Positions 2,731 through 31,044 of a DNA stretch of 32,000 nt are shown here, piece by piece (the first letter of the stretch is position 1; every line of letters begins with the position of its first letter). Source of the DNA: an uncultured Fibrobacterota bacterium (GTDB taxonomy: Bacteria > Fibrobacterota > Fibrobacteria > Fibrobacterales > Fibrobacteraceae); contig CAIRAY010000093.1 in the NCBI GenBank assembly GCA_903876665.1, forward strand, positions 5,685 through 37,684, given 5' to 3'. The translations under genes and the position numbers were made by a program. The notes beneath the pieces were generated by a model that saw nothing but the letters and a program-made list of their open reading frames with translations, did no database searches and was not told where the DNA came from.

Positions 2731-2877
2731 GCAGACTCCTTGTGTTTTTGTTTTTAATGGCAATGGATTGCCGTTAGAGTTGAGAATGTACAACGAATAT
2801 TCTCCCTTTCAAAATCGGGAATAACGTGTTTTAAAGGAATAGGGAACAAGGATTGCCGATAATTTTCCCTCTCCAAA

Positions 2878-2949: not shown

Positions 2950-2957
2950 GAGAAATT

Positions 2958-8630: not shown

Positions 8631-8763
8631 ACGACAAAGAAAACACAGCCACCCAAAAGGCCTTGGATTTCTTTAATGCGTTTGCCTTGCGAAATTACCC
8701 ATATTCCTATGGACTTTTCTAAGTTGAATCGGTATTTTGTAAGACTTGAATGCCAGAAAAATC

Positions 8764-14700: not shown

Positions 14701-15642
14701 GATGTCGCTATTACGGGTGACCTGTTTTGGTCCGAAGAGTTTACCCAGAAGCGGGAGACGCCCCTTTACCTGGACACCACCACCACCTGGCCCAAGGCAG
14801 GCGTGGGCGTAACGATTCCCAATTTTGCGAGCCGTTTGAACCTGTTGAAGAGTTATTTCAGCTCTTTTGCCCTCAACCATCGCACGGATTACACCTTTAC
14901 ACGCTCGGTCACTCCGTTCCAGAATGCGGAAGACGAATGGAAGACCGAATGGGGATTTTCGCCCTTGGTGAGCATCCAAACTCTCACAAAAAAGAACGTC
15001 CACATCGATAACGACATCAATCTGAATTTATCCCATTCCTTGCGCCGTCCAAAAATCCAGGTGGTGCCATACCCCGGCTGGCCAGATACCACGACCCACA
15101 GCACCCTGGATAGCTCGCTGTTTATCGATGTTCCTTGGATGCACACCGATTCCAACCAGAGCTGGGGGACCAAAATTGGGGATGAGCTTTCCATTGGTTA
15201 CGATCTGAAGACCGCGCGAGGATTCCAGCTTTTCAAGTGGTACTTCCGTCTCAAAAACAACATCAATCTGAAATTGAATACCGGCCTCACCTACGAAACC
15301 ATTCGTTACCGTGAGCGGGCAGTGGTCCCGGATTACAGTCCAATTCAGAACAATGCCTCTGCAGGTTCGGTAAACGGAAAGATCGCCTGCGACGACAAGG
15401 GTGAAAACTGCCAATTGGTGTACAATCCGCTGTTTGTGGAGGTCTCCGACGAAACTGAACGGACTCCTACGGCCACGTGGGAATACTACATCCGCCCCAA
15501 TGCGGGTTACCAGTTCAACAAGATGGCTACCGGAAGCGCGTTCCTGGAATATCGATACAATCGATCCAAAACCAACGATGGCGAAACGAATTCCATCCAT
15601 ACCCTACGGTTTGAAATCGCGCTGATGCTGCAGTTTGATTAG
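8764..15642 (+). CDS. sprA: Type IX secretion system translocon / gliding-motility protein SprA (Sov family), about 2290 aa
   Basis: The giant ORF has a signal peptide, MFRKYLRHATGLLPALLALVMSAHA-Q, when started at ATG 8764; the tracked start at 8746 is a TTG. The N-terminal block KGKIGRNITVEINNTES...LKVVYAE....FEDFILQRVELG...LFGVKADFKVGDWNLTAIASQDGG matches the remembered SprA N-terminal repeat consensus (kGkiGdkl.v..n.nte...lkl.Y.g..ediiq.iE.G...LfG.k..l.fG....t.v.Sqq). The C-terminus is beta-rich and ends MLQFD. Confidence 0.85.
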   Translation: MFRKYLRHATGLLPALLALVMSAHAQSSPAVVPSNASGSSLEYIPTPPSTHPLQGLLPKGGIGQHPAWGYLKMPERNLLNRHEVDFESREVRIHALYYNTLSRDTTNMWTAYYQELTSYTFDMFDIGFRRLWLNSLIGQKDGGSESQEGSLFDISIPVNMPAWMKDLGLDKPKLQLQGTMNIKFTGIGTYDDAPGSTQKSLWPSPNLSYEPSFLVKGKIGRNITVEINNTESGLGVRNQLKVVYAEATPGEFEDFILQRVELGSTSLSLKGTELTGYSETHTGLFGVKADFKVGDWNLTAIASQDGGSTEKYKMRSSEQSAEGKIEDRQFVPYKYYFLTQKYRADFIASAIQGSTRPITMPVGLELYTRPRAEVLDAIKDVDALYYDANDNQSGLGITSLMLVKMSAEDWSWNQNTGTVVIKNGSRNTLIVAAWNNAPTHQGAGGLRSGQKAVLVQTDGQTKPHLGIEKLMLRNVYNVGLSQENATGFVLRMKNQTLNAVDYLKTLGVLDSASGSAKVTDDAIFPKEGSKYSGEMWLPCLPASWYVKYNNATQALAIQRASENCLEPLRAVDSSATIKNLYTLPVASLTSSQYAPQYSFYTVGKLRSSFMSIRDAGSSYSVNSGNCIDIAPGSETLKIKSDKLVANVDYSVNYELGQIELLSEKALNPNNEIEVTYECEPLFQIDNKLLLGGRAEYPIKSLSDKSLFGLTALYKSQSTTQEQPRFGGEPYSSVLLGANLTLQDSARWMDRFTNALPFIDTKARSQWTVEGEVAASYHNANTSANKTALLDDFENSLRSIQYSTYRTFWYPASPPGGTIDDPSTYIPLLDFKHKGEFIWHSNQSERYRNVYTAVGNTEVDSRELPILKFTLRPNDNLEGNSWGGVMRANGTYNQDLSDFRYLEVVARGNVGNLFVDLGAISEDVPVGGMEPNREINTEADPWTAKANDDNGIDGVGDGTSTSTASEVRVDWNCRVPGCIADTVKTGANPDLAQDNFSLQENDTDPDVHINGTEGNNGPNERPYDTEDLNDNRSLEVDNRFVRYRINLESTDLNDFEELKNGWRRWRIPLSEYDTIVSGDGTSWQEILGQTPMTRIWYGRLKHGVVEGQSQILDLRIVGNQWTADSTGNQYGVVVDGPTQTVIVDGMPVQVTVPGTVVKQDTNYLRVRVLNNRDDAGTYFKSEKTVTERDAQTSAALKEQSLVMDFGGLHKNQAVSATRFFDGEEKDLTQYQKIQLEILYKSDAIRSATDSIPVRFAVQLGLGGPEGSTNYYEWSYTPRLMNSAECTAERLTIQNCHEQNWDDNRFVLDLSKFVDLKKGRGPRDLPKYVSIPSSTKFERNERVGIVGNPSIGRVNWVRFVVIAQDSLARSGSLWVNDLRLSGMSNEWGVAARLRAQMDFADLMTLSGELNYRDGAFATLKSEGKSPKPTLAESNASLEAKANYSLNINKFFKDEWMLHMPLSLSYDASVLRPYLKPQSDERLSKDDLKEISTHSFNVTQDDLAGPMDTLLSRDLRDGLDSAEQYLRDNQKSKGFQNFSRTKSLSIGYAKEHTEDENLWMDWATQAFLERPEFNFRYSETQSHSATSADSSYTYGASLKYKLGSYKPFNLTPFKAFPSLVFEPWPQTMDVTLADFLYSKSLGQELDPNYVAPLADPTQIFGVDLKHKIDMRWNILPFLTAAYSLGVERDMNRGHDRQSFTRDNFFDPGSENGLFARKVVFDYDTNDCELVIAKSKDSVAVEYKVARDGQTLNELDSSTYNLDTTWIQRDTIVDVGDCSYGRRFGVLRNERSRTQDFKLNFNPMVIPFLPTRFTFGSTFQQNKTIPTPFSLLDPETLKKNFWSIEQTNRFEVIPTVKLVDLFGWGSKNKVTEFLNKWKLQELRTNWSVDVGTKGEDFTLYQLRERQKVTPAQYYLYGLGIGDGKSVRNFWDLVTGDMNLNRDDYEQFAEYRNRHVDTLVYQGAFTHAVKRNASLGSNLTLPIWDVAITGDLFWSEEFTQKRETPLYLDTTTTWPKAGVGVTIPNFASRLNLLKSYFSSFALNHRTDYTFTRSVTPFQNAEDEWKTEWGFSPLVSIQTLTKKNVHIDNDINLNLSHSLRRPKIQVVPYPGWPDTTTHSTLDSSLFIDVPWMHTDSNQSWGTKIGDELSIGYDLKTARGFQLFKWYFRLKNNINLKLNTGLTYETIRYRERAVVPDYSPIQNNASAGSVNGKIACDDKGENCQLVYNPLFVEVSDETERTPTATWEYYIRPNAGYQFNKMATGSAFLEYRYNRSKTNDGETNSIHTLRFEIALMLQFD

Positions 15643-15732: not shown

Positions 15733-17043
15733 TTATACGACCGTTAATATACCGCGTAGAACCGTTTCCAGCTTGGGCGGGTCGGACTTTTCATCCACGG
15801 CCTGTTGCAGGAATTTTTGCATGGGTTCGCGGCGCTTAATGGCCGTGTCGACCTCGGGGTCGGAGCCCTTGACATAGGCACCAATGTTGATCAGGTCTTC
15901 GTTTTTGCGATAGCTCGCCATAGAAGTCAAAAGGGGGCCGGTGATGGCGCGGAATTCGGGCGTGGTTACATCGGGGCGGCAACGGCTGATGCTTGCCAGC
16001 ACATCGATGGCGGGGTAATGGTTGCGGTGGGCGAGGGCCCGCGAAAGCACAATATGGCCATCCAGAATGGAGCGGGCCGTGTCGGCGATGGGGTCGTCCA
16101 TGTCGTCGCCTTCGACCAGAACCGTGTAGAGCCCGGTTATGGAACCCTTGGTTCCTGATCCGGCCCGTTCCAGCAACTTGGGCAGGAAGGCGAAAACGGA
16201 AGGCGTGTAGCCCTTGGTTGCGGGTGGCTCGCCGATGGCCAGCCCGATTTCGCGCTGGGCCATGGCCAAGCGTGTGGCGGAATCCAGCAGAAGCATCACC
16301 TCTTCGCCTTGGTCGCGGAAATATTCGGCAATGGTCGTGGCTAAAAGGCTTGCCTTGATGCGAATGAGCGCCGGCTGGTCGGAGGTTGCCACAATGACGA
16401 TGGATTTTTTGAGACCCTCGGGACCCAAGTCTTTTTCCACAAATTCCCGCACCTCGCGTCCGCGTTCCCCGATCAAAGCGATCACATTCACTTTGGCCAA
16501 GCAGTTTCGCGCGATCATTCCCATGGTAACGCTTTTGCCCACGCCGGAGCCTGCAAAAATTCCCAGACGCTGGCCCTGTCCAATGGTTAAGAATGAGTCC
16601 ACCGCGCGGATTCCCGTAAACATGGGCTTCACGATGCGTTTGCGTTCAAGCGCTCCGGGCGGGTTCGCGTAGATGCTGCGATGCCCTTCAAAATCAAGGG
16701 GACCCAGCTGGTCAATGGGGTTTCCCAAGCCATCGAGCACCCGACCCAAAATTCCCCATCCCACGGGAGCGACCAGGGTGGCACCATCAGCGATGACCTC
16801 CATGCCGGGGCGAATTCCTTCCAAGGGTCCCAAGGGCATCACAAGCGTTCTTTGTTCGCGGAATCCGACCACCTCGGCTTTGCAAATTTCATGGTTTCCG
16901 GACATAATCCGGCAGAGCTCACCGACGCTTGCCGTGGGACCTTCGCATTCAATGGTGAGGCCAATAATTTTAGCGACACGCCCGCGCAATAATGGAATGC
17001 GTTGGGGGACTAGCTTCTGCAGAATGGAGTTTGCAAGGTTCAC
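15733..17043 (-). CDS. fliI: Flagellum-specific ATPase FliI
   Basis: Walker A motif GSGVGKS and F1/T3SS ATPase blocks (LLLDSATR, EGDD..DPI.D). The GTG start overlaps the fliH stop as GTGA. Confidence 0.9.
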   Translation of the reverse strand: MNLANSILQKLVPQRIPLLRGRVAKIIGLTIECEGPTASVGELCRIMSGNHEICKAEVVGFREQRTLVMPLGPLEGIRPGMEVIADGATLVAPVGWGILGRVLDGLGNPIDQLGPLDFEGHRSIYANPPGALERKRIVKPMFTGIRAVDSFLTIGQGQRLGIFAGSGVGKSVTMGMIARNCLAKVNVIALIGERGREVREFVEKDLGPEGLKKSIVIVATSDQPALIRIKASLLATTIAEYFRDQGEEVMLLLDSATRLAMAQREIGLAIGEPPATKGYTPSVFAFLPKLLERAGSGTKGSITGLYTVLVEGDDMDDPIADTARSILDGHIVLSRALAHRNHYPAIDVLASISRCRPDVTTPEFRAITGPLLTSMASYRKNEDLINIGAYVKGSDPEVDTAIKRREPMQKFLQQAVDEKSDPPKLETVLRGILTVV

Positions 17044-17867
17044 ACCTTCTCCGCATCCGACAACGCCTGGCCAATTGCAGTCCGGACCATAGTCTCGATA
17101 CGATCCAGCACGACTTGGGTACGCAGGTCAACCGTTCCTCCGCCCGTGGATTCAATCCAGCAGCCACCACGGTCCACGCGCTCGTCCGATTCTAGGCGCA
17201 CAGATTTCAAGGAGGTGTTCAAAGGCTGCCAAACGGACTGGGATTCTTCCGCATACTTGACATCCAAAGGGTGCAAATGCAAAACCACGGATTCGGCCTG
17301 CCCCAAATGGGAGAAGGCTTCGTTAAGAACGATCGCAATGCGTTCCGGATGGGTTTCGGCTTCGATGCTGAAAAGTTTTTTGGCGATTCCCAGAGCCAGT
17401 TCCAACGATTCCGACTGAATATTGCGGACCCGTTCTCCGTAGGCGGCGTTGATGTTTTGGATGGATTTCGCAACTTCGGCCTGCAGTGCGGCGACTTGGG
17501 TGGCAAATTCTTTGGTGGCTTTGCTTTCGCCTTCTTTGCGACCGGCCACCAGGCCTTCTTCGCGGGCTTTGACCGCAGCGGATTCAGTCGTGCGCTTGGC
17601 CTCGGCTTTGCTGGCTTCAAGTGTCCGTTTGCTCTCCGAAATTTCCCGTTCCAGAACTTGAATGCGAACCAGGTTTTCGTCTTTGGCTTTCTGGATTTCG
17701 CGCCCGGGAACTTTGAATTCGGGAAGGTCAAAAGAATCCAGAGGAAGCCGTTGCAGATTCTGGGCAGCGGCCCCGCTGCGGACAATGCCTTTGAGCGCCA
17801 CTTTGCCCTCGGACTCCTGGGTAAGAGCCTGGAACATGGAGGATTGCTGGTCTTTCCCTGGAGCCAT
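17040..17867 (-). CDS. fliH: Flagellar assembly protein FliH
   Basis: It sits between fliG and fliI. It has a charged coiled-coil centre (E/K/A-rich) and a FliH-type C-terminal domain (VVLHLHPLD...GGCWIES..G.VDLR). GAGG lies 8 nt upstream of the ATG. Confidence 0.8.
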   Translation of the reverse strand: MAPGKDQQSSMFQALTQESEGKVALKGIVRSGAAAQNLQRLPLDSFDLPEFKVPGREIQKAKDENLVRIQVLEREISESKRTLEASKAEAKRTTESAAVKAREEGLVAGRKEGESKATKEFATQVAALQAEVAKSIQNINAAYGERVRNIQSESLELALGIAKKLFSIEAETHPERIAIVLNEAFSHLGQAESVVLHLHPLDVKYAEESQSVWQPLNTSLKSVRLESDERVDRGGCWIESTGGGTVDLRTQVVLDRIETMVRTAIGQALSDAEKV

Positions 17868-17879
17868 ATAAAGCCTCGC

Positions 17880-18941
17880 TTACACGATCACATCGTCTTC
17901 GCCACCACGACCCGAAATAATGATTTCGTTTTCGGATTCGAGACGACGGACAATGTCCACAATCTTCTGCTGGGCTTCTTCCACTTCGCGCAGGCGCTTG
18001 GGTCCCATGAAGGAGATTTCTTCCTTGATGATTTCCGAAGCGCGCGAGGACATGTTCGTGAAGAACTTGTTCTGCACCTGTTCGTTGGCCCCCTTGAGCG
18101 CAAGCGAAAGCTCCTTGGAATCGACTTCCTTGAGAACTTTCTGGATCGACTTGTCGTCGAGCAGGAGCATATCTTCGAACACGAACATGAGACTCTTGAT
18201 TTCTGTGGCGAGCTCGGGATCGTCCCGTTCGAGGGTTCCCAAAATATTCTTTTCGGCGCTGCGGTCGACCATGTTGAGCATTTCGGCCACGGACTTGACG
18301 CCGCCGACTTCGGCGGTATCGCCCGAGAAGAAGCTCTTCATGACCTGCGAAAGTTGTTGTTCCACCTGGACCAGGACATCCGGTGAAATGGATTCCATGG
18401 TGGCGATGCGCGTGGCGACTTCCACCTGCATTTCGGGGCTTAGCGCCGAAAGGGTTGCAGCGGCTTTGTCCGACTTCATGTGCGCAAGCAAAAGGGCAAC
18501 CGTCTGCGGATGTTCCTTTTGCAAAAATCCGATCAGCTGACTGGTTTCCACATTGTCAAGCATGTTGAAACCCGTGGTGCGAATGGTGCTGGTGACTTTT
18601 TCCAGGATTTCGCGGGCTTTACGAGGACCCATGGATGCTTCCAGAACTTCCTGGGCGTATTCGATTCCACCATGTGTCACGAATTCTTTGGCCATGGAAA
18701 GGCTCTGGAACTCAGTAAGAACATATTCACGCATTTCGGGAGTGACACCCTCGAGGCGGGCGATCTGGGCCGTGAGCATTTCAATTTCGTTTTCGGTCAG
18801 GTTCTTGAAGATGTTGGCACTGGCTTCCGCACCGAGCGCCACCATCAGAATGGCGGCCTTCTTGGGTCCGGGAATGTCGAACATGGGGGCACCGGGAGCT
18901 GCTCCCGAATCACCACCGCCCTTATAGAATTGTTTGGCCAT
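17880..18941 (-). CDS. fliG: Flagellar motor switch protein FliG
   Basis: Typical FliG sequence (KAAILMVALG.E.SA.IFK.L...EIE.L..., EVD.KEL..ALKGA....), a length of 353 aa, and operon position. Confidence 0.9.
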   Translation of the reverse strand: MAKQFYKGGGDSGAAPGAPMFDIPGPKKAAILMVALGAEASANIFKNLTENEIEMLTAQIARLEGVTPEMREYVLTEFQSLSMAKEFVTHGGIEYAQEVLEASMGPRKAREILEKVTSTIRTTGFNMLDNVETSQLIGFLQKEHPQTVALLLAHMKSDKAAATLSALSPEMQVEVATRIATMESISPDVLVQVEQQLSQVMKSFFSGDTAEVGGVKSVAEMLNMVDRSAEKNILGTLERDDPELATEIKSLMFVFEDMLLLDDKSIQKVLKEVDSKELSLALKGANEQVQNKFFTNMSSRASEIIKEEISFMGPKRLREVEEAQQKIVDIVRRLESENEIIISGRGGEDDVIV

Positions 18942-18944
18942 CTA

Positions 18945-20489
18945 CTATTTACCACTCTTGGCAGGTTTCTTTTCTTCACCCTGGGCTAGCCAGGAGCGTA
19001 GCAATTCCGCGACGACCAGAGGATTGGAAACGGTGTAATCCTCTAGCTTTTGCAGAAGCTCGTTATGGCGCTTGACCCGCTCGGGAACTTCCTGCTTTTC
19101 ATCTTCCAGGTTGATTCCGGCAAATTTGGGCACGGGCGGATTCATGGCTTCGATCATGCCCACCGCGACCTTGCGCAGGAACACGAAGGCCAGCAAAAGA
19201 ATCAGGACAATAGTTCCACGTAATGCCCAGGTTTCGTAGACTTCGCGTTGCTCCATTCCTTCCAAAGCCTGCATTTCGTCTTCCACGTCGGAGCGGTCAA
19301 ACTGCACGGAAGCAACGAAGACGTCGTCGTTGCGCTCGGTGGAGAAGCCAACCGCATTACGCACAAGCTGGTTTAGAACTTGAATTTCATCGGGGGAGCG
19401 TGGCTTGAAAATCTTTTTGCCATCGGAACCCTTTTCGTAGGAGCCATCGACGGCCACGGACACAGTGAGGCGTTTGGTGGTGCCTGGACTCGAGACAATT
19501 TGCGACATGGTCCGGTTGATTTCGTAGTTGGTTATCGAGCCTTCCTTGGTCTCGTTGCCCACGATTGGGCTGTTGGTCTTGCTGCCGTCGTCGCGTTGTT
19601 CGGAGCGCACGACTTTTTTGGAAGGATCGTAGGTTTCGACGGTTTTGTTGATCTGGTCGAAGTCGAGTTCGGCACTAACTTTGACGCGGGATTTATTGGG
19701 ACCGACTACGCCGTCCAGAATCATCATGATCTGGGCTTCCATGTTGGCTTCGACGCCACGCTTGAGTTCCTGGTTGTGATCGGTGGCTTCGGCAACCACA
19801 TTGTCGGCAAAGCCACGGGTGAGCATGCTTCCATGATCGTCAAGAATGGTGACTTGGCGGGCACGCAAGCCTTCTACCGCGCTGGCCACCAGGTGCTGGA
19901 TTCCTTTGATCTGGCGTTCCTTAAGGTCTTGGCCGGGACGTAATTTCAATATTACCGAAGCGGTCGCTTCCTCTTTCTTTTCCATGAAGATGGTTTGTTT
20001 GGGAATGCTGATATGCACGCGGGCACCCTCGATTTCGCGAAAGGTTTCGATGGAGCGCATGAGTTCGGTTTCGACCGCACGCCGGTAATTGAGGTTCTGG
20101 GTAAAGTCGGTCATGCCCAATTGGCTTTTGTCGAACAACTCGTAGCCCTTGCCTTGTTCCCGTGGAAGGCCTGCGCGTGCAAGGTTCATGCGAATTTCAT
20201 GAATCGATTCCTTGGCTACGAGAATGGATCGGCCATCGTTGTCGAGCTCATACTCGAACTTGCCTTCCTTGAGGAATCCGGTGATTTCGGCAGCATCGCT
20301 GAGTTCCAGGTTTGCAAACAAAGTGGCTTTGCCAGAATCGCCTCCGCCAAACCCTTGAATGGAAATCACCACGACCAGCGCAATGAAGGTAATGCCAAGG
20401 ACCGCAACGATCAATCCCTTCTGCAAAGGATTGAAACGAACCCAAATATCGCGGAACTGTGTGAGTAGTTGTTTAAAAAATTCTGACAT
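18945..20489 (-). CDS. fliF: Flagellar M-ring protein FliF
   Basis: An N-terminal TM (LIVAVLGITFIALVVVI), the YscJ/FliF periplasmic domains, a second TM near aa 440, and operon position. Confidence 0.9.
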   Translation of the reverse strand: MSEFFKQLLTQFRDIWVRFNPLQKGLIVAVLGITFIALVVVISIQGFGGGDSGKATLFANLELSDAAEITGFLKEGKFEYELDNDGRSILVAKESIHEIRMNLARAGLPREQGKGYELFDKSQLGMTDFTQNLNYRRAVETELMRSIETFREIEGARVHISIPKQTIFMEKKEEATASVILKLRPGQDLKERQIKGIQHLVASAVEGLRARQVTILDDHGSMLTRGFADNVVAEATDHNQELKRGVEANMEAQIMMILDGVVGPNKSRVKVSAELDFDQINKTVETYDPSKKVVRSEQRDDGSKTNSPIVGNETKEGSITNYEINRTMSQIVSSPGTTKRLTVSVAVDGSYEKGSDGKKIFKPRSPDEIQVLNQLVRNAVGFSTERNDDVFVASVQFDRSDVEDEMQALEGMEQREVYETWALRGTIVLILLLAFVFLRKVAVGMIEAMNPPVPKFAGINLEDEKQEVPERVKRHNELLQKLEDYTVSNPLVVAELLRSWLAQGEEKKPAKSGK

Positions 20490-20599
20490 AAGTTTCGACT
20501 CTCCGCATTAAGATAGTCACATTTGCGATGAAATGCCATATCTTGTTTAAAATCAACAAGTTAAGAGTAGCGAAATTTGTGCCGAAAGAAGGGAGGTAC

Positions 20600-20804
20600 A
20601 AGTGGAAAGTGAACAGCCCGGGTTGCGGATCGGTTGGCTAGTGGAATACACAGGGGTGTATAAGTTCCCGTATTCCGCCTGGGCGGAACGGTCACTATTA
20701 AGTGGAAAATTGCGAAATGTATTCTCTTTCAGGGAAATTTGCCCGCAATTTTCCGTTTTCCACTAGGGTGTCGTGCAGAGAATCTGGCTGTTCACTTTCC
20801 ACTT
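20600..20804. repeat. Nested perfect inverted repeats (205-bp palindromic element) in the fliE-fliF spacer
   Basis: Outer arms 20600-20618 and 20786-20804 pair over 19/19 bp. Middle arms 20638-20646 and 20758-20766 pair over 9/9 bp and share the same centre. An internal hairpin, 20704-20714/20744-20754, pairs over 11/11 bp. Small hairpins lie at 20646-20661 and 20673-20688. The AGTGGAA core occurs 5 times. Confidence 0.85.
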
Positions 20805-20808
20805 CTCC

Positions 20809-21117
20809 TTAGCTTCTCATCCGGATCAATTCGCTGTAGGCATCCATGGTTTTGTTGCGGATTTCGAGCATCAGGTTGAAGGCGACCTTGGCTTCTTCTA
20901 CGGCGAGCATGACCTGGTGGACGTCCTTGACTTCGCCGGCGACCATCTTCTGGATCGAAGTGTCAGCGGTCTTTTGCATTTGATTGACATCGGTCATGAA
21001 ACCCTTGAGCATGTCGTCGAATTTGGGAGCGCCCGCTTTCCCGGGAGAGGATATCTTGGGATCAAGCTCCGTGGGTCCTTGGGGAATTAGGCCTTTAATC
21101 ATTTCTAGTTCATTCAT
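20809..21117 (-). CDS. fliE: Flagellar hook-basal body complex protein FliE
   Basis: FDDMLKGFMTDVNQMQ....MVAGEV.DVHQVMLA.EEAKVAFNLMLEIRNK...AY.E..RM is a classic FliE sequence. A GAGGA RBS lies upstream. Confidence 0.85.
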   Translation of the reverse strand: MNELEMIKGLIPQGPTELDPKISSPGKAGAPKFDDMLKGFMTDVNQMQKTADTSIQKMVAGEVKDVHQVMLAVEEAKVAFNLMLEIRNKTMDAYSELIRMRS

Positions 21118-21133
21118 ATTCTTATCCTCGAAC

Positions 21134-21448
21134 TTAGGCGCGCATGTCGATCAAATTTCCGATTTTTCGGATGGGCATGCCGGTAGCGGCTTGGGCCCGT
21201 AGGGATTCCGCCCGGGACTGGTAGTCTCCTTGGGCAAACTTGGGTGCCATCGTTTGACTGGCCACGGCTTTGGCGGGGGCGGTCTGCTGCTGGGGTGCAA
21301 TTCCCATTTCCCGGCGTTTGGATTCAAGCAGAGCCTGCCAATCCGAAACCTGGGTAGACTTGGCTGGAGCGGCAGCCGCAGGTGTCTGCATCCGGGCTTG
21401 GGCGCTTTCGCGAAGTTTCATGAATTGTTGCAGTGCGACGGGATCCAT
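21134..21448 (-). CDS. Hypothetical Ala/Gln-rich protein (104 aa) inserted between flgC and fliE
   Basis: The ORF fills the gap exactly: its ATG is 1 nt after the flgC stop and its stop is 16 nt before the fliE ATG. It is on the same strand as the operon. No family was recognised and the sequence is low-complexity. Confidence 0.55.
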   Translation of the reverse strand: MDPVALQQFMKLRESAQARMQTPAAAAPAKSTQVSDWQALLESKRREMGIAPQQQTAPAKAVASQTMAPKFAQGDYQSRAESLRAQAATGMPIRKIGNLIDMRA

Positions 21449-21449
21449 A

Positions 21450-21962
21450 TTAGAGCTCCAGTGCCTTGGTGAGCATGGCTTTGGTGGAGTTGAATGCGGT
21501 CACATTGGCTTCATAAGCGCGGGACGCTGTGATCATGTCAACCATTTCTTCAATCACATTTACATTGGGCATGGCCACATAACCTTTTTCGTCGGCGTCG
21601 GGGTGGCTGGGGTCGTAGACCATGCGCAGGGGCGCGTCATCCTTCACGATTCCGGCAACCTTGACGCCCGAGCCAATGTTTTCCTGGGCTAGAGGCCACT
21701 CGGGCTGGGGAATGTTCATGTGTCCGTTCTGGGTTTTGCGTCCACCGATTTTATCTTGTTCCTTCACCAGGAACTGGTCAAATTCAACTGGATCCGCTTC
21801 GAGCTGGACTCGTTGACGGCGGTAAGGGCCACCTTCGGCGGTGCGGGTAGTTTCGGCATTGGCCAGGTTCGAAGAGATGACGTTCTGGCGAATGCGCTGA
21901 GCCCGTAAGCCCGAGGCGCTGATGTCTAAACCGGTAAAAAATCCAACAAGAGGCATAATCAT
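21450..21962 (-). CDS. flgC: Flagellar basal-body rod protein FlgC
   Basis: LDISASGLRAQRIRQNVISSNLANAETTRT and the C-terminal block ...ITASRAYEANV.A....K.M. The start is probably the second ATG at 21956, which has AAGGA 6 nt upstream. Confidence 0.9.
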   Translation of the reverse strand: MIMPLVGFFTGLDISASGLRAQRIRQNVISSNLANAETTRTAEGGPYRRQRVQLEADPVEFDQFLVKEQDKIGGRKTQNGHMNIPQPEWPLAQENIGSGVKVAGIVKDDAPLRMVYDPSHPDADEKGYVAMPNVNVIEEMVDMITASRAYEANVTAFNSTKAMLTKALEL

Positions 21963-21972
21963 TCCTTAGGTC

Positions 21973-22440
21973 TTAAGTGACCTTTCCCGCAGAAGTAATT
22001 TTTTCCAACTGACTGCGAATAAAGCGCGCATCAAAGCTATATGCGAGCTGGTTTTCAGCCAGTTTGGACATTTCCATATCAATATCGACATTGTTCACTT
22101 CGCCCGGCTTGGTGGGGTCTTCGGGACGGTAGGCAAAAGGCTTGAGCATATCCAATTCAGGTCGTCCTAAACGGATGTGGTTGGGATCGGTACGGTCGCC
22201 GGCCACTTGTTTCTTATCGAGAGCCTTGCGAAGCTGTTCTTCAAAATTGACTTCGATGCGCTGGAACCCAGGGGTAGTCACATTGGCCAAATTATCGGCA
22301 ATTGCCTTACCACGCAGAGTACCAGCGTCCAGCCCTTTGGCGGCTACCGGGATGCTCGTGTGGTCGAATATGGTCAGTTTTGCAAGCATAGACAGTCCTT
22401 CTAAAGACTGCTTTGCGAATTCCATGCCATAAGGGTTCAT
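21973..22440 (-). CDS. flgB: Flagellar basal-body rod protein FlgB
   Basis: LRGKAIADNLANVTTPGFQR matches the rod-protein N-terminal motif. The tracked start is a GTG at 22449. ATG 22440 is preceded by GAGGGAG. An alternative ATG at 22389, preceded by GAAGGA, gives a more typical 139 aa. Confidence 0.85.
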   Translation of the reverse strand: MNPYGMEFAKQSLEGLSMLAKLTIFDHTSIPVAAKGLDAGTLRGKAIADNLANVTTPGFQRIEVNFEEQLRKALDKKQVAGDRTDPNHIRLGRPELDMLKPFAYRPEDPTKPGEVNNVDIDMEMSKLAENQLAYSFDARFIRSQLEKITSAGKVT

Positions 22441-22512
22441 CTGCGTCACTCCCTCGCAAACGTTGGTCTAGTGCACTGTTTCGCATGAGCGACCCGCCTT
22501 CCTAGGGCCACG

Positions 22513-24976: not shown

Positions 24977-25708
24977 ATGTTTAAAAATTTCCCCAAGCAA
25001 AGGCCACCACTCCCTGCGGCGATTCAGGCGATTTATTCTAGCCAGTACAAATCCAACCGCAATGGCAGCACCACTGCGGCTTCCTTGGCGCAGCGCATGG
25101 AAGAATGGCTTCACCGCAAGGTGGCCAGCGATGTCGGCTCTCCAAATGATGCATACAAAGTTACACTCGAACTCGGTGCTGGAACTCTCAACCAGTTAAA
25201 GTACGAACCGAATTTGATTACCTATGACATCGTAGAGCCGTTTAGGGATCTGTTCCGTGATTCCCCAAGCCTCAGTCGGATTCGAAACGTATTTGCTGAC
25301 ATTTCCGAAATCCCCTGTAGCCCCGGTTACGACCGTATCACATCCGTGGCGGTTCTGGAACATGTATGTAACCTGCCCGAAGTTATTGCGAAAGCCGGAC
25401 TCCTGTTGAACCCAAACGGCGTATTTCGAGCAAGCATCCCCAATGAAGGGACGTTTCTATGGACTCTAGGCTGGAAATTGACCACAGGGCTAGAGTTCAA
25501 GCTGAAGCACGGACTGGATTACGGGATATTGATGAAGCATGAACATGTCAATACGGCCGATGAAATTGAACAGGTATTGAAGCATTTTTTTAAAGATGTT
25601 TCTTGTAAGGTATTTGGGGTGTGCAAGGGTATCGCGTTGTATCGCTACTTCGAGTGCAAAAACCCACAGCTAGGTCTCTGCAATGAATTCCCTTCGTCAT
25701 CGCGATAA
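24977..25708 (+). CDS. Class I SAM-dependent methyltransferase
   Basis: Motif I is LELGAGT. The acidic post-I residue and the VAVLEHV block are typical of type 11/12 methyltransferases. Confidence 0.75.
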   Translation: MFKNFPKQRPPLPAAIQAIYSSQYKSNRNGSTTAASLAQRMEEWLHRKVASDVGSPNDAYKVTLELGAGTLNQLKYEPNLITYDIVEPFRDLFRDSPSLSRIRNVFADISEIPCSPGYDRITSVAVLEHVCNLPEVIAKAGLLLNPNGVFRASIPNEGTFLWTLGWKLTTGLEFKLKHGLDYGILMKHEHVNTADEIEQVLKHFFKDVSCKVFGVCKGIALYRYFECKNPQLGLCNEFPSSSR

Positions 25709-26123
25709 ACTGGTGCGTTACCTATTCGTCGGAGGCTCCGCAGCGGTAGTCGATTTTGTGGTGTTTGTTGTGGTTTTGCATCTCCTGACCATGGTCAACT
25801 TTGCGACGAGTGGGACTTCCCCTTTTTATCCGGAGCAACTGGCAAATGCCGCTTCGCTTCTCTGCGGCTTCCTTTTCAGTTTTTTCCTGCATCGCTTTTG
25901 GTCTTTTCGGTCCACAGGAAACCCGTATCCCCAGCTGGCCAAAACGATCCTGCTGGTGATCATCAACACCGCAGTCAGTAGCGCTCTGATTTCCGTCCTC
26001 GCTCGCGACTTTGGCTTGAACATCAAAATTGCAAAGCTGATTTTGCAAGGGCTTGTTGCTTCTTGGAATTATCTAATTTTCAATTACCTGATTTACAATT
26101 CAAGAAAACGATGCAGTCCATGA
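25683..26123 (+). CDS. GtrA-family small membrane protein (putative polyprenyl-phosphate-sugar flippase component)
   Basis: LVRYLFVGGSAAVVDFVVF matches the GtrA N-terminal signature. The protein has 4 TM segments in 146 aa. It overlaps the methyltransferase 3' end by 26 nt and the GT2 start. Confidence 0.75.
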   Translation: MNSLRHRDKLVRYLFVGGSAAVVDFVVFVVVLHLLTMVNFATSGTSPFYPEQLANAASLLCGFLFSFFLHRFWSFRSTGNPYPQLAKTILLVIINTAVSSALISVLARDFGLNIKIAKLILQGLVASWNYLIFNYLIYNSRKRCSP

Positions 26124-27082
26124 ATCAATTGCTTTCTGTAGTTATCCCTGTCTATAACGAAGGCGAGGGAATCGCCCACGCCATTCAACAAATCAGCAAA
26201 ACCCTGGTTCAAGCAAATATTCCTCACGAATTTGTCCTGGTGGACGATGGATCCCGGGATCACTCCTGGGATGAATTGTTAAAGCTTGCCAAGGGCAGTG
26301 ACAATATTCTCTCGGTAAAGTTGAGTCGGAATTTTGGAAAAGAAGCGGCTCTCTGTGCTGGCCTCGATCATGCCAAGGGGGCCTGTTGCCTTTGTATGGA
26401 CTCCGATTTGCAGCACCCCCCCGAAATCATCCCCGAAATGTACCGGCTTTGGAAGGATGATGGCGTTGAGGTGGTCGAAGGAATCAAGAAGCATCGGGGT
26501 CGCGAATCCATTTCATACAAACTAAGCGCAAAGATATTTTATCAGCTTCTCAAAAAGACATCTGGAATCAACCTTGAAAACGCCTCGGATTTCCGCCTGC
26601 TCGACCGTGTGGCTGTAGAGGCTTGGAAGTCCCTCCCCGAACGGTCCACCTTTTTTCGGGGAATGTCCACATGGATTGGATTTTCCCGGGCCCAGGTAAG
26701 TTTTGTCGTCGCTCCGCGTGAAAATGGATCCACCAAGTGGTCATTCTTTCGACTTGCGCGCCTAGGTCTCAGCGCCATCACCTCTTTCTCTGCCGCCCCC
26801 CTTTACCTCTCCGCAACCATAGGCTGCGCGTTCCTGTTTCTTTTTGTTCTCCTTTTGGGATGGACTTTGTACATGAAATTCATGGGAATTGCTGCAGACG
26901 GATTCACCACGGTAATTTCCCTCCAACTCATTGTCGGAGGGTTGTTATTGTTAAGTGTTGGGGTCATTGGCATTTATCTGGAAAAAATTTACGAGGAAGT
27001 GAAAGGGCGTCCGCGTTATTTGATTCACCGCGTTGTAGCTCGAAATCCAACTTCATCCAACTCCATCGTCCGTGAGGGATAA
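26111..27082 (+). CDS. GT2 polyprenyl-phosphate hexosyltransferase (GtrB/ArnC/DPM1-like)
   Basis: LSVVIPVYNE, VLVDDGSRD, MDSDLQHPPE (DxD), and two C-terminal TM helices. The start is ATG 26111 or 26120; the tracked 26063 start would overlap GtrA extensively. Confidence 0.85.
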   Translation: MQSMNQLLSVVIPVYNEGEGIAHAIQQISKTLVQANIPHEFVLVDDGSRDHSWDELLKLAKGSDNILSVKLSRNFGKEAALCAGLDHAKGACCLCMDSDLQHPPEIIPEMYRLWKDDGVEVVEGIKKHRGRESISYKLSAKIFYQLLKKTSGINLENASDFRLLDRVAVEAWKSLPERSTFFRGMSTWIGFSRAQVSFVVAPRENGSTKWSFFRLARLGLSAITSFSAAPLYLSATIGCAFLFLFVLLLGWTLYMKFMGIAADGFTTVISLQLIVGGLLLLSVGVIGIYLEKIYEEVKGRPRYLIHRVVARNPTSSNSIVREG

Positions 27083-27088
27083 TTCAAA

Positions 27089-28846
27089 ATGGAACTGTTT
27101 AATCTTTTCTCTTTTTGTTTCGTTGCACTGCTGATTTTTCTTGCAGTTGCAATTCGCTTTGCTTTGACTCCTGCGCAATTGGAGAAATGGGCGCTACCCC
27201 AAGGGAGTCGCACCCAGCGGGCGATTCAATGGGTTAGTTCGATGGCTAGGCCCGAGGGGGCGCATCCTCGCCTGTATTGGGTCTTATTTACCGTTGCCAT
27301 TCTTGTCGCTACCGGGCTACGGGTTTACCAATTCGGAGGTGTGCCTGCTGGATTCAATCAAGATGGCGCCATGGCCGCGGTGGATGCCAAGGCACTTTCG
27401 GACTACGGGACTGATCGCTTTGGCATGAAATTCCCCGTTCAATTTACCGCATGGGGCTATGGCCAGATGAGCGTGTTGCTCTCCTATGCCATGGTTCCGT
27501 TCATAAAGGTCTTTGGCCTTACTGCGATCACCGCCCGGCTGCCCATGCTGTTTGCCAGTTTACTTGGATTAGTTGCGTTGTTTTTTCTGATCAAGGATTT
27601 GGCTGGACGGCGTGCGGCTTTGGTTTTGTTGTTTTTTGCGGCCATTAACCCTTGGCATATTATGCAAAGTCGTTGGGCCCTGGATTGCAATATGTTTCCT
27701 CACATGCTCCTCATCGGTCTGTTTTTACTGAATCGGATGAATCGGAGCCCTGGGTATTTATATGCATCCATGATTTTCTTTGCGCTATGCATGTACAGCT
27801 ATGGCATCGCCTTTGTAACCATTCCACTTTTTCTGCTTGCGACGCTCGTTCTTCTTCTTTTCAAGCGAATGGCGTCCTGGAGGCAGCTATTGATTGCCAG
27901 TGCAGTATACATTGGACTCTCCTGGCCCGTTTGGCTCGTCATGGTGATTAACACGTTAAAGCTTTCAACTGTTCAGACGCCCTTCTTCACTGCGGCATTT
28001 TTTGAAAACAGCGTCCGTTCCAAAGACCTGCTATTTTTTGCCGATGATTTTTGGAGTCAGCTGTTAATCAATGTTCAGTCGCTTTTGAATGTGGTCTTTT
28101 TGCAACGCCCTGATCTTCCCTGGAATGCCCTGGATAACTACGGAACGATCTATCTCTGTTCCATGCCCTTTGTTTGGGTGGGCTTGTTGTGGTCCATAAA
28201 AGAAATCATGACCTCTGCAAACAAGCAAAAACAATTCGCCTATTCGATTCTGATGTTCGGATTCCTTACTGGCATTTGGGCCGGATTAGTGGTTGCATCT
28301 GTGAATGTGAACCGAATCAACATCATTTTCTATGTGATGATCATTCTGGGGGGCTTGGGCATTTACCAAACCATACGTTGGTTCCGTTGCAGCAAATATT
28401 TGATCGCGGTCCTTTATGCCATTTTATTGGTTCAGTTCTCCTCGCACTATTTTGGAGATTACGCAGACCAAATTGGGGAATACTATTTCGAAGATTTTGG
28501 AAAGGCATTGAACTATGTCGAAGATAAGCCCTTTGAATCCATCTATGTTACCGTGAACAGCCAGTACGAGGGATCAAAAAATGTCAGTGAAATTTTGACT
28601 CTGTTCCATCATGGAATCGATGCGCAATATTTTCAGGGCGTTACCAACCAAGTGGAGGGGAAAACCCTTCGACCATACTCCGAAAAATATCGGTACGCAT
28701 CCATGCGTGATCTGGTCATTAATCCTTCCGAGCAGGCGGTGTATGTGGTAAATAGCAATGAGGTCCAATACTTCGATCCCGCCGTTTTCCACATCGAACA
28801 GTTTCCAAGATTCAGCGCAGTCATTCCCCGAAACATGCAGAACTAA
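27089..28846 (+). CDS. GT39/ArnT-PMT-like GT-C membrane glycosyltransferase
   Basis: The first periplasmic loop GGVPAGFNQDGAMAAVDAKALSDYGTDRFGMKFPV.F.AWGYG resembles the family-39 loop (..DEa..gYnAysl..tG.D..G...Pl.f..fg). The protein has more than 10 TM segments followed by a C-terminal soluble ~130 aa. Confidence 0.75.
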   Translation: MELFNLFSFCFVALLIFLAVAIRFALTPAQLEKWALPQGSRTQRAIQWVSSMARPEGAHPRLYWVLFTVAILVATGLRVYQFGGVPAGFNQDGAMAAVDAKALSDYGTDRFGMKFPVQFTAWGYGQMSVLLSYAMVPFIKVFGLTAITARLPMLFASLLGLVALFFLIKDLAGRRAALVLLFFAAINPWHIMQSRWALDCNMFPHMLLIGLFLLNRMNRSPGYLYASMIFFALCMYSYGIAFVTIPLFLLATLVLLLFKRMASWRQLLIASAVYIGLSWPVWLVMVINTLKLSTVQTPFFTAAFFENSVRSKDLLFFADDFWSQLLINVQSLLNVVFLQRPDLPWNALDNYGTIYLCSMPFVWVGLLWSIKEIMTSANKQKQFAYSILMFGFLTGIWAGLVVASVNVNRINIIFYVMIILGGLGIYQTIRWFRCSKYLIAVLYAILLVQFSSHYFGDYADQIGEYYFEDFGKALNYVEDKPFESIYVTVNSQYEGSKNVSEILTLFHHGIDAQYFQGVTNQVEGKTLRPYSEKYRYASMRDLVINPSEQAVYVVNSNEVQYFDPAVFHIEQFPRFSAVIPRNMQN

Positions 28847-28860
28847 GGGTTCGCTAGGCT

Positions 28861-31044
28861 CTATTCTTGTGCCTGGAATTGAGGCTCAAGCCAGTCAGCG
28901 TGGTCATAATTTATGGATCCGAGGCCATCGATCACCAGCGCTAACTTGCCTTCACCCTGTAATGGAATCCGGGTAAACCCGGTAGGTGATCCATGGCGAA
29001 TGGTGTCGCTTTTCCAGGCCTGCACGCCGTCCAGTTCGATGCGGAATTGCACTTCACCACCCGGAGATTCATCGTCAATTCCAAAATTCACCGCGAAAGA
29101 TTTTGCCGTGTCGGGTATGCTGAATTCCATGCGAGAATTAGCATGCGCACCCCAGCCCAGGTCCCACATTTTTCCGTTGACCGAGAGAGGATTTCCATCG
29201 ACCGAAGAGTTCATTGCGGGTTGTTTGTAATCCTGCGAAGAAAGGGTTGGATTCCTTAAGCTTGAATCCAGTTTTCGGACTGTTTTGTCGAGGATGATCA
29301 CGGGCTGCAGCCAGTCGGCATGATCATAGGAGTCGGGTCCCAGGGTTCTCGTTTCTAGGGTGAGGATTCTTCCGTGTGCGACAGAAACCATGGCGAGCTG
29401 GTATTCTTCCCCGCCATTCGCGGGTTCGCTCGTCCACTTTTGCACGCCATCGACCCAAATGATAAATTCAACTTTTCCCTGCTTGGCCTCGTCGTCAATG
29501 CCTATCATTACATACAAACTATCAGAATTCATGGGCAGAGGAAATGAGAAGGAAGAGGGTGCGTGGGTTCCGATGCCATCTTTAAACACTCTCCCATTTA
29601 CCTGAAGAGGCTGATTGTCATAGGAACGGTTGATATTGAACTTCCTAGATTCCGGTTGCATATTCAAGGGAGGAATCGAAGTCAGCAACAGTTGGTTTTC
29701 GCCCAAGTTAAGCTCGAAAGATGGGGGAGGAATGGCCTGATAAATAAGCATGCCGCTCAGAGAAAGAATCAGAATCCCTTCTGGAAGCCATATTGGAGCA
29801 GGAAGAGCTACAAATGCCTGGCGAATCCGGCGCAAAAATCCGCCCCCCAGCACTTCTTTTCCGACCATTAGAAAAAAGACAACGACTCCGAAAAGGGATA
29901 ATGGCATCCAAAGCCACTCACCATTGAGTCCATTGACCTGAGCGATATTCAGTGCGCATACCAGGGTAATCACCAAAAAAAGGAAACCCCGCCGAATGTC
30001 CGTTGCCCAAGCGAGAACAACGAAAGGAACTGCGGGGAGAAGGTACCGCTCATGCATGCCTGGCAAGAGAATGAAAAAGGCGAATAAAATCAGAGCCGAC
30101 CATTTCCATGCTTGACGGGGCTTACGCACTCTCCAAGATTTCCAAAAAGTAAAAAGCGAGAACAGCGAAAACGCCACCATCCCAAGTCCCTTGGGGGTTA
30201 GGATGAATTGCCAGGTTTCGGTGGCTTCCTTTGTTCCTTGAAATAGCAATTGGTTGTCAGGGGCTACATTGCCTACAAGGGACATCCAGATATTGGCGGC
30301 ATTGTAGGTCGCATAAGGGTACATGGATGTATTATTTAGATATGCCTTGTCTATTAGGCCGGAAACCGAATCGAAAAGAATCCAGGGCAGAACAATTAAG
30401 GCGCCAACCGCTATGCCAATCGGCAACGCTCGGAGCAACCATCTCCAGCGATATAGCGCTAACCCTGCATACACGGGTAAAATGGCAATCATCTGGAATT
30501 TGCATAATAGGGCAAGAACAAGAAATGCGGGGCTCCAGAGAGTCAGGGCGGAACGCCGGGCTAGGCCTGCAATCGCTAAAACAGCAAATACTGCCGGGAC
30601 GATATCGACCTGGCCCCATACCGGGCCATCCAGCAATAATGCGGGATTCAGTGCGCAAAGACCCAAAATCCAGCCTTGCCGTTCCTGAGTCCAGGGGCGA
30701 CGTTTCACCTCGCTCCAGACCAGTCGCAAAAGGATCAGATGGGAAAAGAATACTGGCCAAAGAACCAGAAATTTGAGGGTGTAATCCTTGGCGAGCGGCA
30801 TCCCGGTCCAAGAATATATCTTTCCCACAACCCAGAGCCATTCTACATAGAACGGTGGGTAATTCCCTGAGAATCCCTGAAATCCAAAGTCTTTTAAATA
30901 GGTGACCCAGCCAAACCAATACCCCTGGTCTCCGTCATAGGGGGAGGCCAGAGTGCAAACCAAGTTGGCAATTATGGCCAGGATGGCATAGAAGACAAAA
31001 GGTCGGTTGTCTTTGGATTGCATAGGGTTCCCGAGAGGTTTCAT
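28861..31044 (-). CDS. GT-C glycosyltransferase (ALG6/ALG8-like motifs) fused to two C-terminal NPCBM carbohydrate-binding domains
   Basis: The membrane domain is aa 1-438 (nt 29731-31044), with GNYPPFYVEWLW (compare eukaryotic ALG8 LDYPPFFAWFE) and PGMHERYLLP (compare VHEKAILL). NPCBM-like repeat 1 is about aa 455-585 (nt 29290-29682) and repeat 2 is about aa 597-722 (nt 28879-29256). Each repeat has G.G(T/A)HA.S...F, F....GIDDE, G.V.F.I..DGVQ.W.S and the terminal YDHADWL. Confidence 0.75.
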   Translation of the reverse strand: MKPLGNPMQSKDNRPFVFYAILAIIANLVCTLASPYDGDQGYWFGWVTYLKDFGFQGFSGNYPPFYVEWLWVVGKIYSWTGMPLAKDYTLKFLVLWPVFFSHLILLRLVWSEVKRRPWTQERQGWILGLCALNPALLLDGPVWGQVDIVPAVFAVLAIAGLARRSALTLWSPAFLVLALLCKFQMIAILPVYAGLALYRWRWLLRALPIGIAVGALIVLPWILFDSVSGLIDKAYLNNTSMYPYATYNAANIWMSLVGNVAPDNQLLFQGTKEATETWQFILTPKGLGMVAFSLFSLFTFWKSWRVRKPRQAWKWSALILFAFFILLPGMHERYLLPAVPFVVLAWATDIRRGFLFLVITLVCALNIAQVNGLNGEWLWMPLSLFGVVVFFLMVGKEVLGGGFLRRIRQAFVALPAPIWLPEGILILSLSGMLIYQAIPPPSFELNLGENQLLLTSIPPLNMQPESRKFNINRSYDNQPLQVNGRVFKDGIGTHAPSSFSFPLPMNSDSLYVMIGIDDEAKQGKVEFIIWVDGVQKWTSEPANGGEEYQLAMVSVAHGRILTLETRTLGPDSYDHADWLQPVIILDKTVRKLDSSLRNPTLSSQDYKQPAMNSSVDGNPLSVNGKMWDLGWGAHANSRMEFSIPDTAKSFAVNFGIDDESPGGEVQFRIELDGVQAWKSDTIRHGSPTGFTRIPLQGEGKLALVIDGLGSINYDHADWLEPQFQAQE

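Follow-up and report, generated by a model that had tools for sequence, protein, structure and literature searches.

A predicted GT-C glycosyltransferase with tandem CBM51 modules at a Gtr-like locus of an uncultured Fibrobacterota bacterium

ALG6 and ALG8 are alpha-1,3-glucosyltransferases that depend on dolichyl-phosphate-glucose; they are assigned to CAZy family GT57 (Pfam Alg6_Alg8, PF03155) and represented by PDB entries 6SNH/6SNI. Bacterial enzymes of the glycosyltransferase C (GT-C) type may carry carbohydrate-binding modules (CBMs) of their own. In EmbA/B/C, AftD and Citrobacter youngae ORF12 (GT136), an N-terminal GT-C region is followed, past the last transmembrane (TM) helix, by one or more periplasmic beta-sandwich CBMs, and those of EmbC, AftD and GT136 ORF12 bind the acceptor polysaccharide (PMC11127046; PMC3044687). 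In this study, a stretch of 32,000 nucleotides from an uncultured Fibrobacterota bacterium (GenBank assembly GCA_903876665.1, contig CAIRAY010000093.1, positions 5,685 to 37,684; hereafter referred to as the window) was analysed with respect to one gene, whose 727-amino-acid (aa) product combines a polytopic N-terminal region with two C-terminal NPCBM/CBM51 modules. With a probability of roughly 0.7, we read this protein (the target) as an inner-membrane GT-C enzyme of a Gtr-type pathway that moves a polyprenyl-phosphate-linked sugar to a periplasmic or surface glycan, while its CBM51 modules hold the acceptor or product.

ALG6 is the best structural match of the target, with the catalytic Asp of loop 1 and the motifs xYPP, (F)K(Q) and HE(K/R) arranged in the same order and register, and a lipid-phosphate monosaccharide donor of the same type would be used. 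In contrast to ALG6, the target is bacterial and periplasmic rather than located in the lumen of the endoplasmic reticulum (ER), has 13 instead of 14 TM helices, carries Asn in place of the essential Asp99, is about 15% identical in the structural alignment and gives no Alg6_Alg8 match of its own. It bears two CBM51 modules, whereas ALG6 lacks a sizeable luminal domain (PMC12653191), and its acceptor cannot be Man9GlcNAc2-PP-dolichol. Family GT87 (PF09594, formerly DUF2029), which includes PimE, is the commonest Pfam match of distant relatives (41/72) and shares the catalytic logic proposed for PimE; the target and its core family, by contrast, have no GT87 match, and PimE has no CBM. No PimE structure was found among the Foldseek or PDB-profile matches.

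The domain order of the target is that of the Emb, AftD and GT136 enzymes, and EmbA/B appear among its full-length structural matches. It differs from them in its GT-C lineage (ALG6/GT87-like, not Emb/ArnT-like), in its CBM family (CBM51/NPCBM), in the tandem arrangement of the CBM within the subgroup of the target, and in its hosts (Fibrobacterota and Gammaproteobacteria). Gtr-type systems (GtrA/GtrB/Gtr, CsbB/GtcA/YfhO, ArnC/ArnT, Pgf) resemble the locus in the adjacency of a GtrA candidate, a GtrB-like GT2 and a GT-C gene, but contain one GT-C instead of the two or three different ones found per target locus, and lack the conserved flavin adenine dinucleotide (FAD) protein (PRK07208) that is inserted in Fibrobacter operons. 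The CBM51 modules of glycoside hydrolases and peptidases (GH95, GH98, GH110, M60 ZmpB) clearly match those of the target in sequence and fold, although in the target the module is periplasmic and attached to a transferase.

An earlier note on this DNA, made from the letters alone, had assumed that no characterised lipid-linked-sugar transferase carries its own CBMs. This premise is outdated in view of EmbA/B/C, AftD and GT136 ORF12, and the principle of a GT-C enzyme with its own CBMs is not new. The capture of an acceptor glycan, which the note had proposed, thereby gains a precedent in the CBMs of EmbC, AftD and GT136 and loses its novelty. What is new is the combination of an unmodelled ALG6/GT87-related bacterial GT-C lineage, a CBM51 lectin in tandem and a conserved multi-GT-C, Gtr-like locus of Fibrobacterota and Cellvibrionaceae.

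Predicted membrane domain and conserved residues

The fold, the topology and the correspondence of residues to ALG6 were computed from the translated gene. A hydropathy scan and two AlphaFold models agree that the helical membrane region stops at residue 437, and hydropathy combined with the AlphaFold helices yields 13 TM helices, in line with the polytopic N-terminal part of about 438 aa described in the earlier note. All short loops rich in Lys and Arg (RRPW, RRS, R-WRW, RVRK and GGGFLRRIRQ) lie on one side of the membrane, whereas D39, GNYPP, GPVWGQVD, K182, the YPYATYNAANIW loop, MHERY and the entire C-terminal region lie on the other. Applied to this distribution, the positive-inside rule puts the active site in the periplasm together with the two NPCBM modules. 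Between TM1 and TM2, the AlphaFold2 (AF2) model contains two juxtamembrane helices (aa 37-53 and 64-80), as expected for loop 1 of a GT-C enzyme.

Since CBM51 matches swamped the Foldseek search with the full-length model (predicted local distance difference test (pLDDT) 88.4), the membrane domain was modelled alone. The AF2 model of residues 1-450, built from 53 sequences, reached a pLDDT of 93.4 and a predicted TM-score (pTM) of 0.92. When it was searched against PDB, 13 matches were obtained at a probability of 0.96-1.0, every one of them a GT-C enzyme, the remainder being noise. The top match was yeast ALG6 (6snh; E value 8e-6, TM-score 0.61/0.58, 496 alignment columns), followed by ArnT, ALG3, PIG-U, STT3, AftA, glycosylphosphatidylinositol (GPI) mannosyltransferase I (GPI-MT-I), EmbB and Pmt4. 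On this model, the membrane domain has the GT-C fold.

Profile searches with the protein itself returned only NPCBM in Pfam, NCBIfam and PDB phmmer, and no GT-C model even at E values up to 1-10; the gathering score of Alg6_Alg8 was not reached by the target, the GT87 profile matched neither the target nor the aligned family members, and PMT_2 was likewise unmatched. A PDB-sequence search with the family profile A1 retrieved CBM51 proteins only. A profile restricted to the membrane domain, searched against 1.84 billion representatives, recovered 2341 relatives at E values up to 1e-3, including 73 at up to 1e-30. Among 54 representatives of the core group, 47 matched NPCBM and four Alg6_Alg8, while 72 representatives of the outer group matched GT87 (41), Alg6_Alg8 (20), NPCBM (14), PMT_2 (12), PIG-U (10), ALG3 (10) and PMT (6); some of the Alg6_Alg8 matches exceed 25 bits. 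With profile A4 (the target and 34 standalone relatives), ALG6 was found among PDB sequences at an E value of 1.4e-10 over about 340 positions and was the only strong match, the second being GPI-MT-I at 1.8e-5.

"ALG6/ALG8-like", the label used in the earlier note, is thus to be taken as a likeness and not as demonstrable membership of GT57 or GT87. The GT-C fold and ALG6 as the nearest solved structure support it, but the protein itself passes none of the profile tests, GT87 is matched by more of its distant relatives, and one essential ALG6 residue differs.

Some distant relatives are giant fusions of 1303 aa (P0239), 961 aa (P0195) and 1161 aa (P0220). The first joins a GT87/ALG6-like domain to an F5/8-type-C (galactose-binding-like) domain and a complete PMT domain, the second consists of two tandem GT-C domains, and lectin-bearing and multi-GT-C fusions seem common within this bacterial clade.

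Residues of the target were paired with those of ALG6 using the alignment of profile A4 to the PDB sequence and a construct offset of 18 residues, which fits three residues from the literature together. D39 is invariant in alignments A1 and A4, is found in at least 90% of the 53-sequence alignment A2, and aligns with D87 of the ALG6 chain, equivalent to D69, which has been described as the catalytic base (PMC12653191); it provides the conserved acidic residue of the first extracytoplasmic loop that characterises GT-C enzymes. H331 falls on chain residue H396, equivalent to the essential H378 (PMC10859629). Two of the ALG6 residues Asp69, Asp99 and His378, the first and the third, are thus matched by D39 and H331, while Asp99 is replaced by N61. 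The outer GT87/ALG6-like relatives mostly have DYPP, in contrast to NYPP in the NPCBM-fused core (alignments A2/A6 vs A5), and the change from Asp to Asn at position 61 appears, on these alignments, to go with the NPCBM-fused clade. D39, K182 and H331, as well as several motifs of the periplasmic face, are kept in 90% or more of the aligned sequences, down to an identity of 30%.

In the scheme put forward for PimE, the base is an Asp located where the first juxtamembrane helix has its tip, and the leaving phosphate is stabilised by a Lys and a His, with no metal involved (PMC12041525). D39, K182 and H331 would fit this scheme, with K182 as a proposed counterpart of PimE K195. A GT-C_B label for ALG6 was dropped, as the PimE paper groups ALG6, ArnT, PglB and PimE as GT-C_A (PMC12041525).

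The open reading frame (ORF) contains both motifs that had been quoted as ALG6-like: GNYPPFYVEWLW spans aa 60-71, and MHERYLLP spans aa 330-337. The profile alignment places GNYPP on LDYPP (D99) and MHERY on VHEK (H378), so that both can be regarded as truly homologous to the ALG6 motifs and as marking functional positions. The motif, polytopic and NPCBM-duplication features of the 727-aa protein are well beyond chance.

Lectin modules and family distribution

The NPCBM/NEW2 profile (PF08305) matches two stretches of the target with an E value of 7.2e-53. The modules are 41% identical to each other over 111 aa (E value 1e-26) and both contain YDHADWL, in agreement with the tandem that the earlier note had recognised. 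Their assignment to CBM51 was established by profile and by the beta-sandwich fold: PDB profile matches include 7js4, 2vmg and 2ygl, and Foldseek aligned the CBM51 of a Clostridium perfringens GH95 enzyme with bound methyl-galactose (2vmg) at a TM-score of 0.82 and a root-mean-square deviation of 2.1. Further structural matches were the tandem modules of a GH98 enzyme, the CBM51 of ZmpB and a GH110 enzyme from Akkermansia. The signature residues GIGTHA, DDE and DHADW are conserved across the family alignment. Most family members (578-aa homologs) carry one module, the counterpart of module 1, and module 2 is an extra copy found only in a subset of about 720 aa. Judging from the titles of PDB entries, the ligands of characterised CBM51 modules are galactose, blood-group A/B antigens or N-acetylglucosamine. 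By analogy, the modules of the target are proposed to bind carbohydrate, most likely the acceptor or product glycan.

A protein search with the membrane domain yielded 151 clusters, mostly of 578-580 aa and nearly all with NPCBM. A scan of species-representative genomes detected at least 243 loci of the GT-C plus NPCBM family, the best 80 of which belong to Fibrobacter, Fibrobacteraceae and Hallerella, to Cellvibrio, Cellvibrionaceae and Saccharophagus, to Rhodocyclaceae and Uliginosibacterium, and to Colwellia and a few others. The architecture is therefore recurrent, with no known function attached to it. Source annotations are generic ('NPCBM/NEW2 domain-containing protein', 'hypothetical protein' or 'Gpi18-like mannosyltransferase'), and in the papers that were searched no description of a GT-C plus NPCBM/CBM51 family was found. 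Cultured members (Fibrobacter intestinalis, Cellvibrio fibrivorans and Saccharophagus sp. K07) make the pathway experimentally accessible.

In the genome paper of Fibrobacter succinogenes S85, three CBM51 proteins, of which two lack signal peptides, are entered as CBM-only and non-catalytic (PMC3079729). They probably belong to the family described here. A second Fibrobacter subfamily (loci L059, L063, L067, L068 and L070), about 33% identical to the target, has no partner genes within 6 kb. Together with the two operon types found elsewhere in Fibrobacter, this suggests about three paralogs per genome, a number that would match the three CBM51 proteins of S85.

Gene neighbourhood and proposed function

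In the window, a GtrA-family protein, a GtrB-like synthase and a second GT-C are encoded together at 25683-28846, next to the target. Neighbourhoods were compared at 55 homolog loci with at least 5 kb of flank on each side, and partners were counted within 6 kb. At least one partner (GtrA, GT2 or PMT_2-like GT-C) was present at 48 loci, often adjacent, on the same strand and in different phyla. The PMT_2-like GT-C was found at 39 loci, GtrA at 31 and GT2 at 19; a GtrA or GtrB-like GT2 gene lay near the homolog at 33. In Cellvibrionaceae and Rhodocyclales, GtrA and GT2 immediately precede the target homolog and share its strand, whereas in Fibrobacter the PMT_2-like GT-C gene directly precedes or follows it and GtrA is often present. 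The operon of Cellvibrio sp. NN19 (L038) has the order GtrA-GT2-target-GT-C(PMT_2+NPCBM)-GT-C.

In this operon, the PMT_2-type GT-C (11893-13890, + strand) has a C-terminal NPCBM (E value 4.9e-13), and two unrelated GT-C lineages have thus recruited the same lectin. The idea that the second GT-C usually bears an NPCBM was rejected, because this is the case at only one of the 55 loci. At L003 (6587-8236, + strand) and ten other Fibrobacter loci, a 549-aa FAD protein (NCBIfam PRK07208, 'hypothetical protein') is encoded between the GtrA and GT-C genes. Its C-terminal part weakly resembles UDP-galactopyranose mutase (TIGR00031, 6e-7), and it might modify the sugar donor, a point of interest as characterised CBM51 modules bind galactose.

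The analysis shows the GT-C fold, the pairing of residues with ALG6, the topology, the NPCBM nature of the modules and a conserved set of neighbouring genes. The polyprenyl-phosphate-sugar donor, the inverting chemistry, the roles of K182 and H331, binding by the CBMs and a glycan as acceptor are what we infer for the target, and the pathway would proceed as follows. On the cytoplasmic face, the GtrB/ArnC/PgfS-like GT2 would take a monosaccharide from a nucleotide sugar and attach it to undecaprenyl phosphate (Und-P), and the GtrA-family protein would flip the lipid-linked sugar. The ALG6-like GT-C and the PMT_2-like GT-C would then transfer the flipped sugar onto a periplasmic or cell-surface glycan, with D39 of the target acting as the general base and K182 and H331 holding the leaving phosphate, while the CBM51 modules would bind the acceptor or product glycan and keep the enzyme on the polymer. 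As GtrB-/DPMS-type synthases and GT-C enzymes are known to be inverting, the linkage in the product would be alpha, provided that the donor is beta-linked.

Several observations weigh against this reading. In the window, the target opposes the GtrA-GT2-GT-C operon by strand and stands outside it; at seven of the 55 loci no partner gene was found within 6 kb, and at the Fibrobacter loci of this set no GT2 was detected within that distance. Neither the target nor the other 52 aligned family members give any Pfam GT-C match at E values up to 1. The position of the essential D99 of ALG6 is Asn in at least 90% of the family. Finally, the core-family profile aligns weakly with the single ALG6 sequence (hhalign E value 0.002, probability 14%), yet in the same register; the alignment to the ALG6 fragment was used solely as a register check, and owing to its weakness the sequence link to ALG6 depends on intermediate relatives.

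The same chemistry and donor would also serve a protein acceptor, in a periplasmic O-glycosylation like that by PMT or the Pgf system of Streptococcus mutans (PgfS and two membrane GT-Cs). PgfS is the best NCBIfam match of the GT2 (4e-69, followed by ArnC at 1.5e-48), but both matches stay under their equivalog cut-offs, that of PgfS by far (233 vs 500 bits). Although the partner GT-C matches the PMT_2 model, this model also spans ArnT-type lipid and glycan transferases. True PMT domains are fused in some relatives (P0239; PMT in 6 of 72), but no candidate glycoprotein acceptor is conserved beside the genes at homolog loci. A protein acceptor is considered improbable, and the same holds for a division of labour in which the PMT_2-like GT-C primes Ser/Thr and the CBM51-bearing enzyme extends the glycosylated sites, even though a lectin reading an existing sugar would suit such follow-up glycosylation.

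Three further explanations are disfavoured by the fold matches, by conservation at the catalytic positions and by the neighbouring genes for donor synthesis. An inactive scaffold of GT-C fold, comparable to PIG-U within the GPI transamidase, whose sole task is to anchor the lectin modules in the periplasm, would agree with PIG-U among the structural matches, with the PIG-U Pfam family in 10 of 72 relatives, with the Asn at the Asp99 position and with the CBM51-only proteins without catalytic function named in the S85 genome paper (PMC3079729). It is very improbable, since D39, K182 and H331, the equivalents of the base and phosphate ligands, are invariant or nearly so, as are several periplasmic-face motifs, and close linkage to donor-making genes is hard to explain for a non-enzyme. 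Enrichment of the family in fibre degraders (Fibrobacter, Cellvibrio, Saccharophagus) and the usual association of CBM51 with glycoside hydrolases might instead point to a membrane-anchored protein that senses galactosides of plant or host origin, or assists in their uptake, and has no part in envelope biosynthesis; with CBMs facing the diderm periplasm rather than the exterior, biosynthetic neighbours in place of hydrolases or transporters, and conserved GT-C catalytic residues, this is barely credible. Least credible of all is a polymerase or ligase of the Wzy/WaaL/RodA kind acting on undecaprenyl-diphosphate-linked oligosaccharides instead of a monosaccharide-phosphate donor. The polytopic architecture, the large periplasmic loops and a polymer lectin would suit it, and such enzymes are also placed among GT-C-like folds (PMC10920833); however, no Wzy, WaaL or SEDS protein was found among the Foldseek matches, the significant ones use polyprenyl-monophosphate sugars or are of the oligosaccharyltransferase type, and the GtrA and GtrB-like neighbours are makers of Und-P-monosaccharides.

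Under the preferred reading of the target as a Gtr-type GT-C transferase, a probable enzymatic function is assigned to a conserved family that databases name only by its lectin domain, and CBM51 joins the few lectin modules that lipid-linked-sugar transferases have recruited. ALG6-like GT-Cs, best known from eukaryotic N-glycan assembly, have bacterial relatives with conserved catalytic residues, which is relevant to how the lumenal glycosyltransferases of the ER arose. The family also directs attention to an envelope glycosylation pathway, so far uncharacterised, in the main rumen and soil cellulose degraders. It is conceivable, though doubtful, that diderm fibre degraders (Fibrobacterota, Cellvibrionaceae and Rhodocyclales) share a previously unrecognised periplasmic glycan-assembly route in which several GT-Cs draw on one flipped Und-P-sugar and CBM51 modules serve as product-binding tethers. 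If so, this route would serve to assemble or modify a glycan or glycoprotein at the cell surface, with the tethers providing processivity or spacing, and would represent a Gram-negative counterpart to mycobacterial arabinan and mannan assembly; its product might add to the glycan-dependent surface properties of cellulose-adhering bacteria.

Coordinates, start codon and the rest of the window

Features of the target gene and its partner genes, with coordinates in the window
Feature	Coordinates	Strand	Basis and remarks
Whole gene, predicted 727-aa GT-C glycosyltransferase with two NPCBM/CBM51 modules	28861..31044	-	ATG start; ORF list, full-length AF2 model, family alignment
Predicted membrane GT-C domain (aa 1-438) with 13 TM helices, N-terminus inside and C-terminus outside	29731..31044	-	AF2 model, Foldseek, loop charge count
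D39, putative catalytic base, start of first periplasmic juxtamembrane helix	30928..30930	-	Conservation and ALG6 alignment
GNYPP motif, aa 60-64, periplasmic loop 1	30853..30867	-	Y62, P63 and P64 invariant; aligns with ALG6 LDYPP
GPVWGQVD motif, aa 140-147, periplasmic end of TM3/TM4	30604..30627	-	G140, W143, Q145 and D147 invariant
K182-F-Q motif, periplasmic turn TM5-TM6; K182 candidate donor-phosphate ligand	30493..30501	-	Invariant; K on Lys of ALG6 FKQ
MHERY motif, aa 330-334, periplasmic loop; H331 candidate phosphate ligand	30043..30057	-	Invariant; H331 on ALG6 chain H396 = H378
NPCBM/CBM51 module 1, aa ~451-585	29290..29694	-	PF08305; PDB 8pvs, 2vmg, 7js4
NPCBM/CBM51 module 2, aa ~597-724	28873..29256	-	Best Pfam stretch 600-723
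GtrA-family small membrane protein, 146 aa, putative polyprenyl-phosphate-sugar flippase	25683..26123	+	Pfam GtrA_DPMS_TM, E value 1.7e-16; gene call on L081
GT2 polyprenyl-phosphate glycosyltransferase, GtrB/ArnC/PgfS type, 320 aa from ATG	26120..27082	+	Pfam Glycos_transf_2, 5e-27
Second GT-C, 585 aa, PMT_2/ArnT-like	27089..28846	+	Pfam PMT_2, E value 7e-4, below cut-off

The family alignment supports the start of the 727-aa frame, because conservation among homologs already begins at about residue 14 and takes in the first loop as well as TM1. The JGI gene call on an identical metagenome contig (L081; metagenome 3300045653) comprises only 646 aa (L081 27-1967, equivalent to window 28861-30801); it starts 81 codons later, at an internal Met, and would drop TM1 and the catalytic first loop with D39 and GNYPP. 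Database copies of the protein are therefore N-terminally truncated. An exact look-up of the 727-aa product returned no match.

The target and the second GT-C are convergent, with 14 bp between their stop codons. The GtrA gene in the window was missed by tblastn with distant GtrA proteins and was located via the gene calls on L081 and confirmed with Pfam; at 146 aa, such a gene is easily overlooked under an ORF cut-off of 150 aa. It shares 26 nt with the end of the methyltransferase-like ORF at 24977-25708 and overlaps the GT2 gene, whose ATG is at 26120, by 4 nt, which suggests translational coupling in a methyltransferase-GtrA-GT2-GT-C operon. Scans for promoters and terminators around the target and neighbour genes gave no more hits than expected from shuffled sequence.

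No O-antigen, capsule or teichoic acid locus is recognisable around the genes within the window. Upstream of the GtrA operon, the segment 22964-25708 (+ strand) contains a LOG/lysine-decarboxylase-like gene, a Ser/Thr protein kinase gene and the class I methyltransferase-like gene, none of which is conserved beside homologs elsewhere. A flagellar cluster with genes for FliI, FliH, FliG and FliF as well as rod proteins is located at 15733-22449 (- strand). Its FliI shares 71-72% identity with the FliI of Fibromonadaceae and of Candidatus Fibromonas metagenome-assembled genomes. Both the cluster and this affinity indicate that the window comes from a motile Fibrobacterota lineage, Fibrobacter itself being non-motile. 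The 2298-aa ORF at 8746-15642 (+ strand) matches SprA_N (E value 1.4e-20) and probably encodes the translocon SprA of a type IX secretion system. At 2853-3962 (+ strand), adjoining a gene with a glutamate-synthase domain (1090-2793), a 369-aa protein combines NrpR regulatory domains (E value 1.8e-75) with a winged helix; NrpR is best known as an archaeal nitrogen repressor and is unusual in a bacterial genome.

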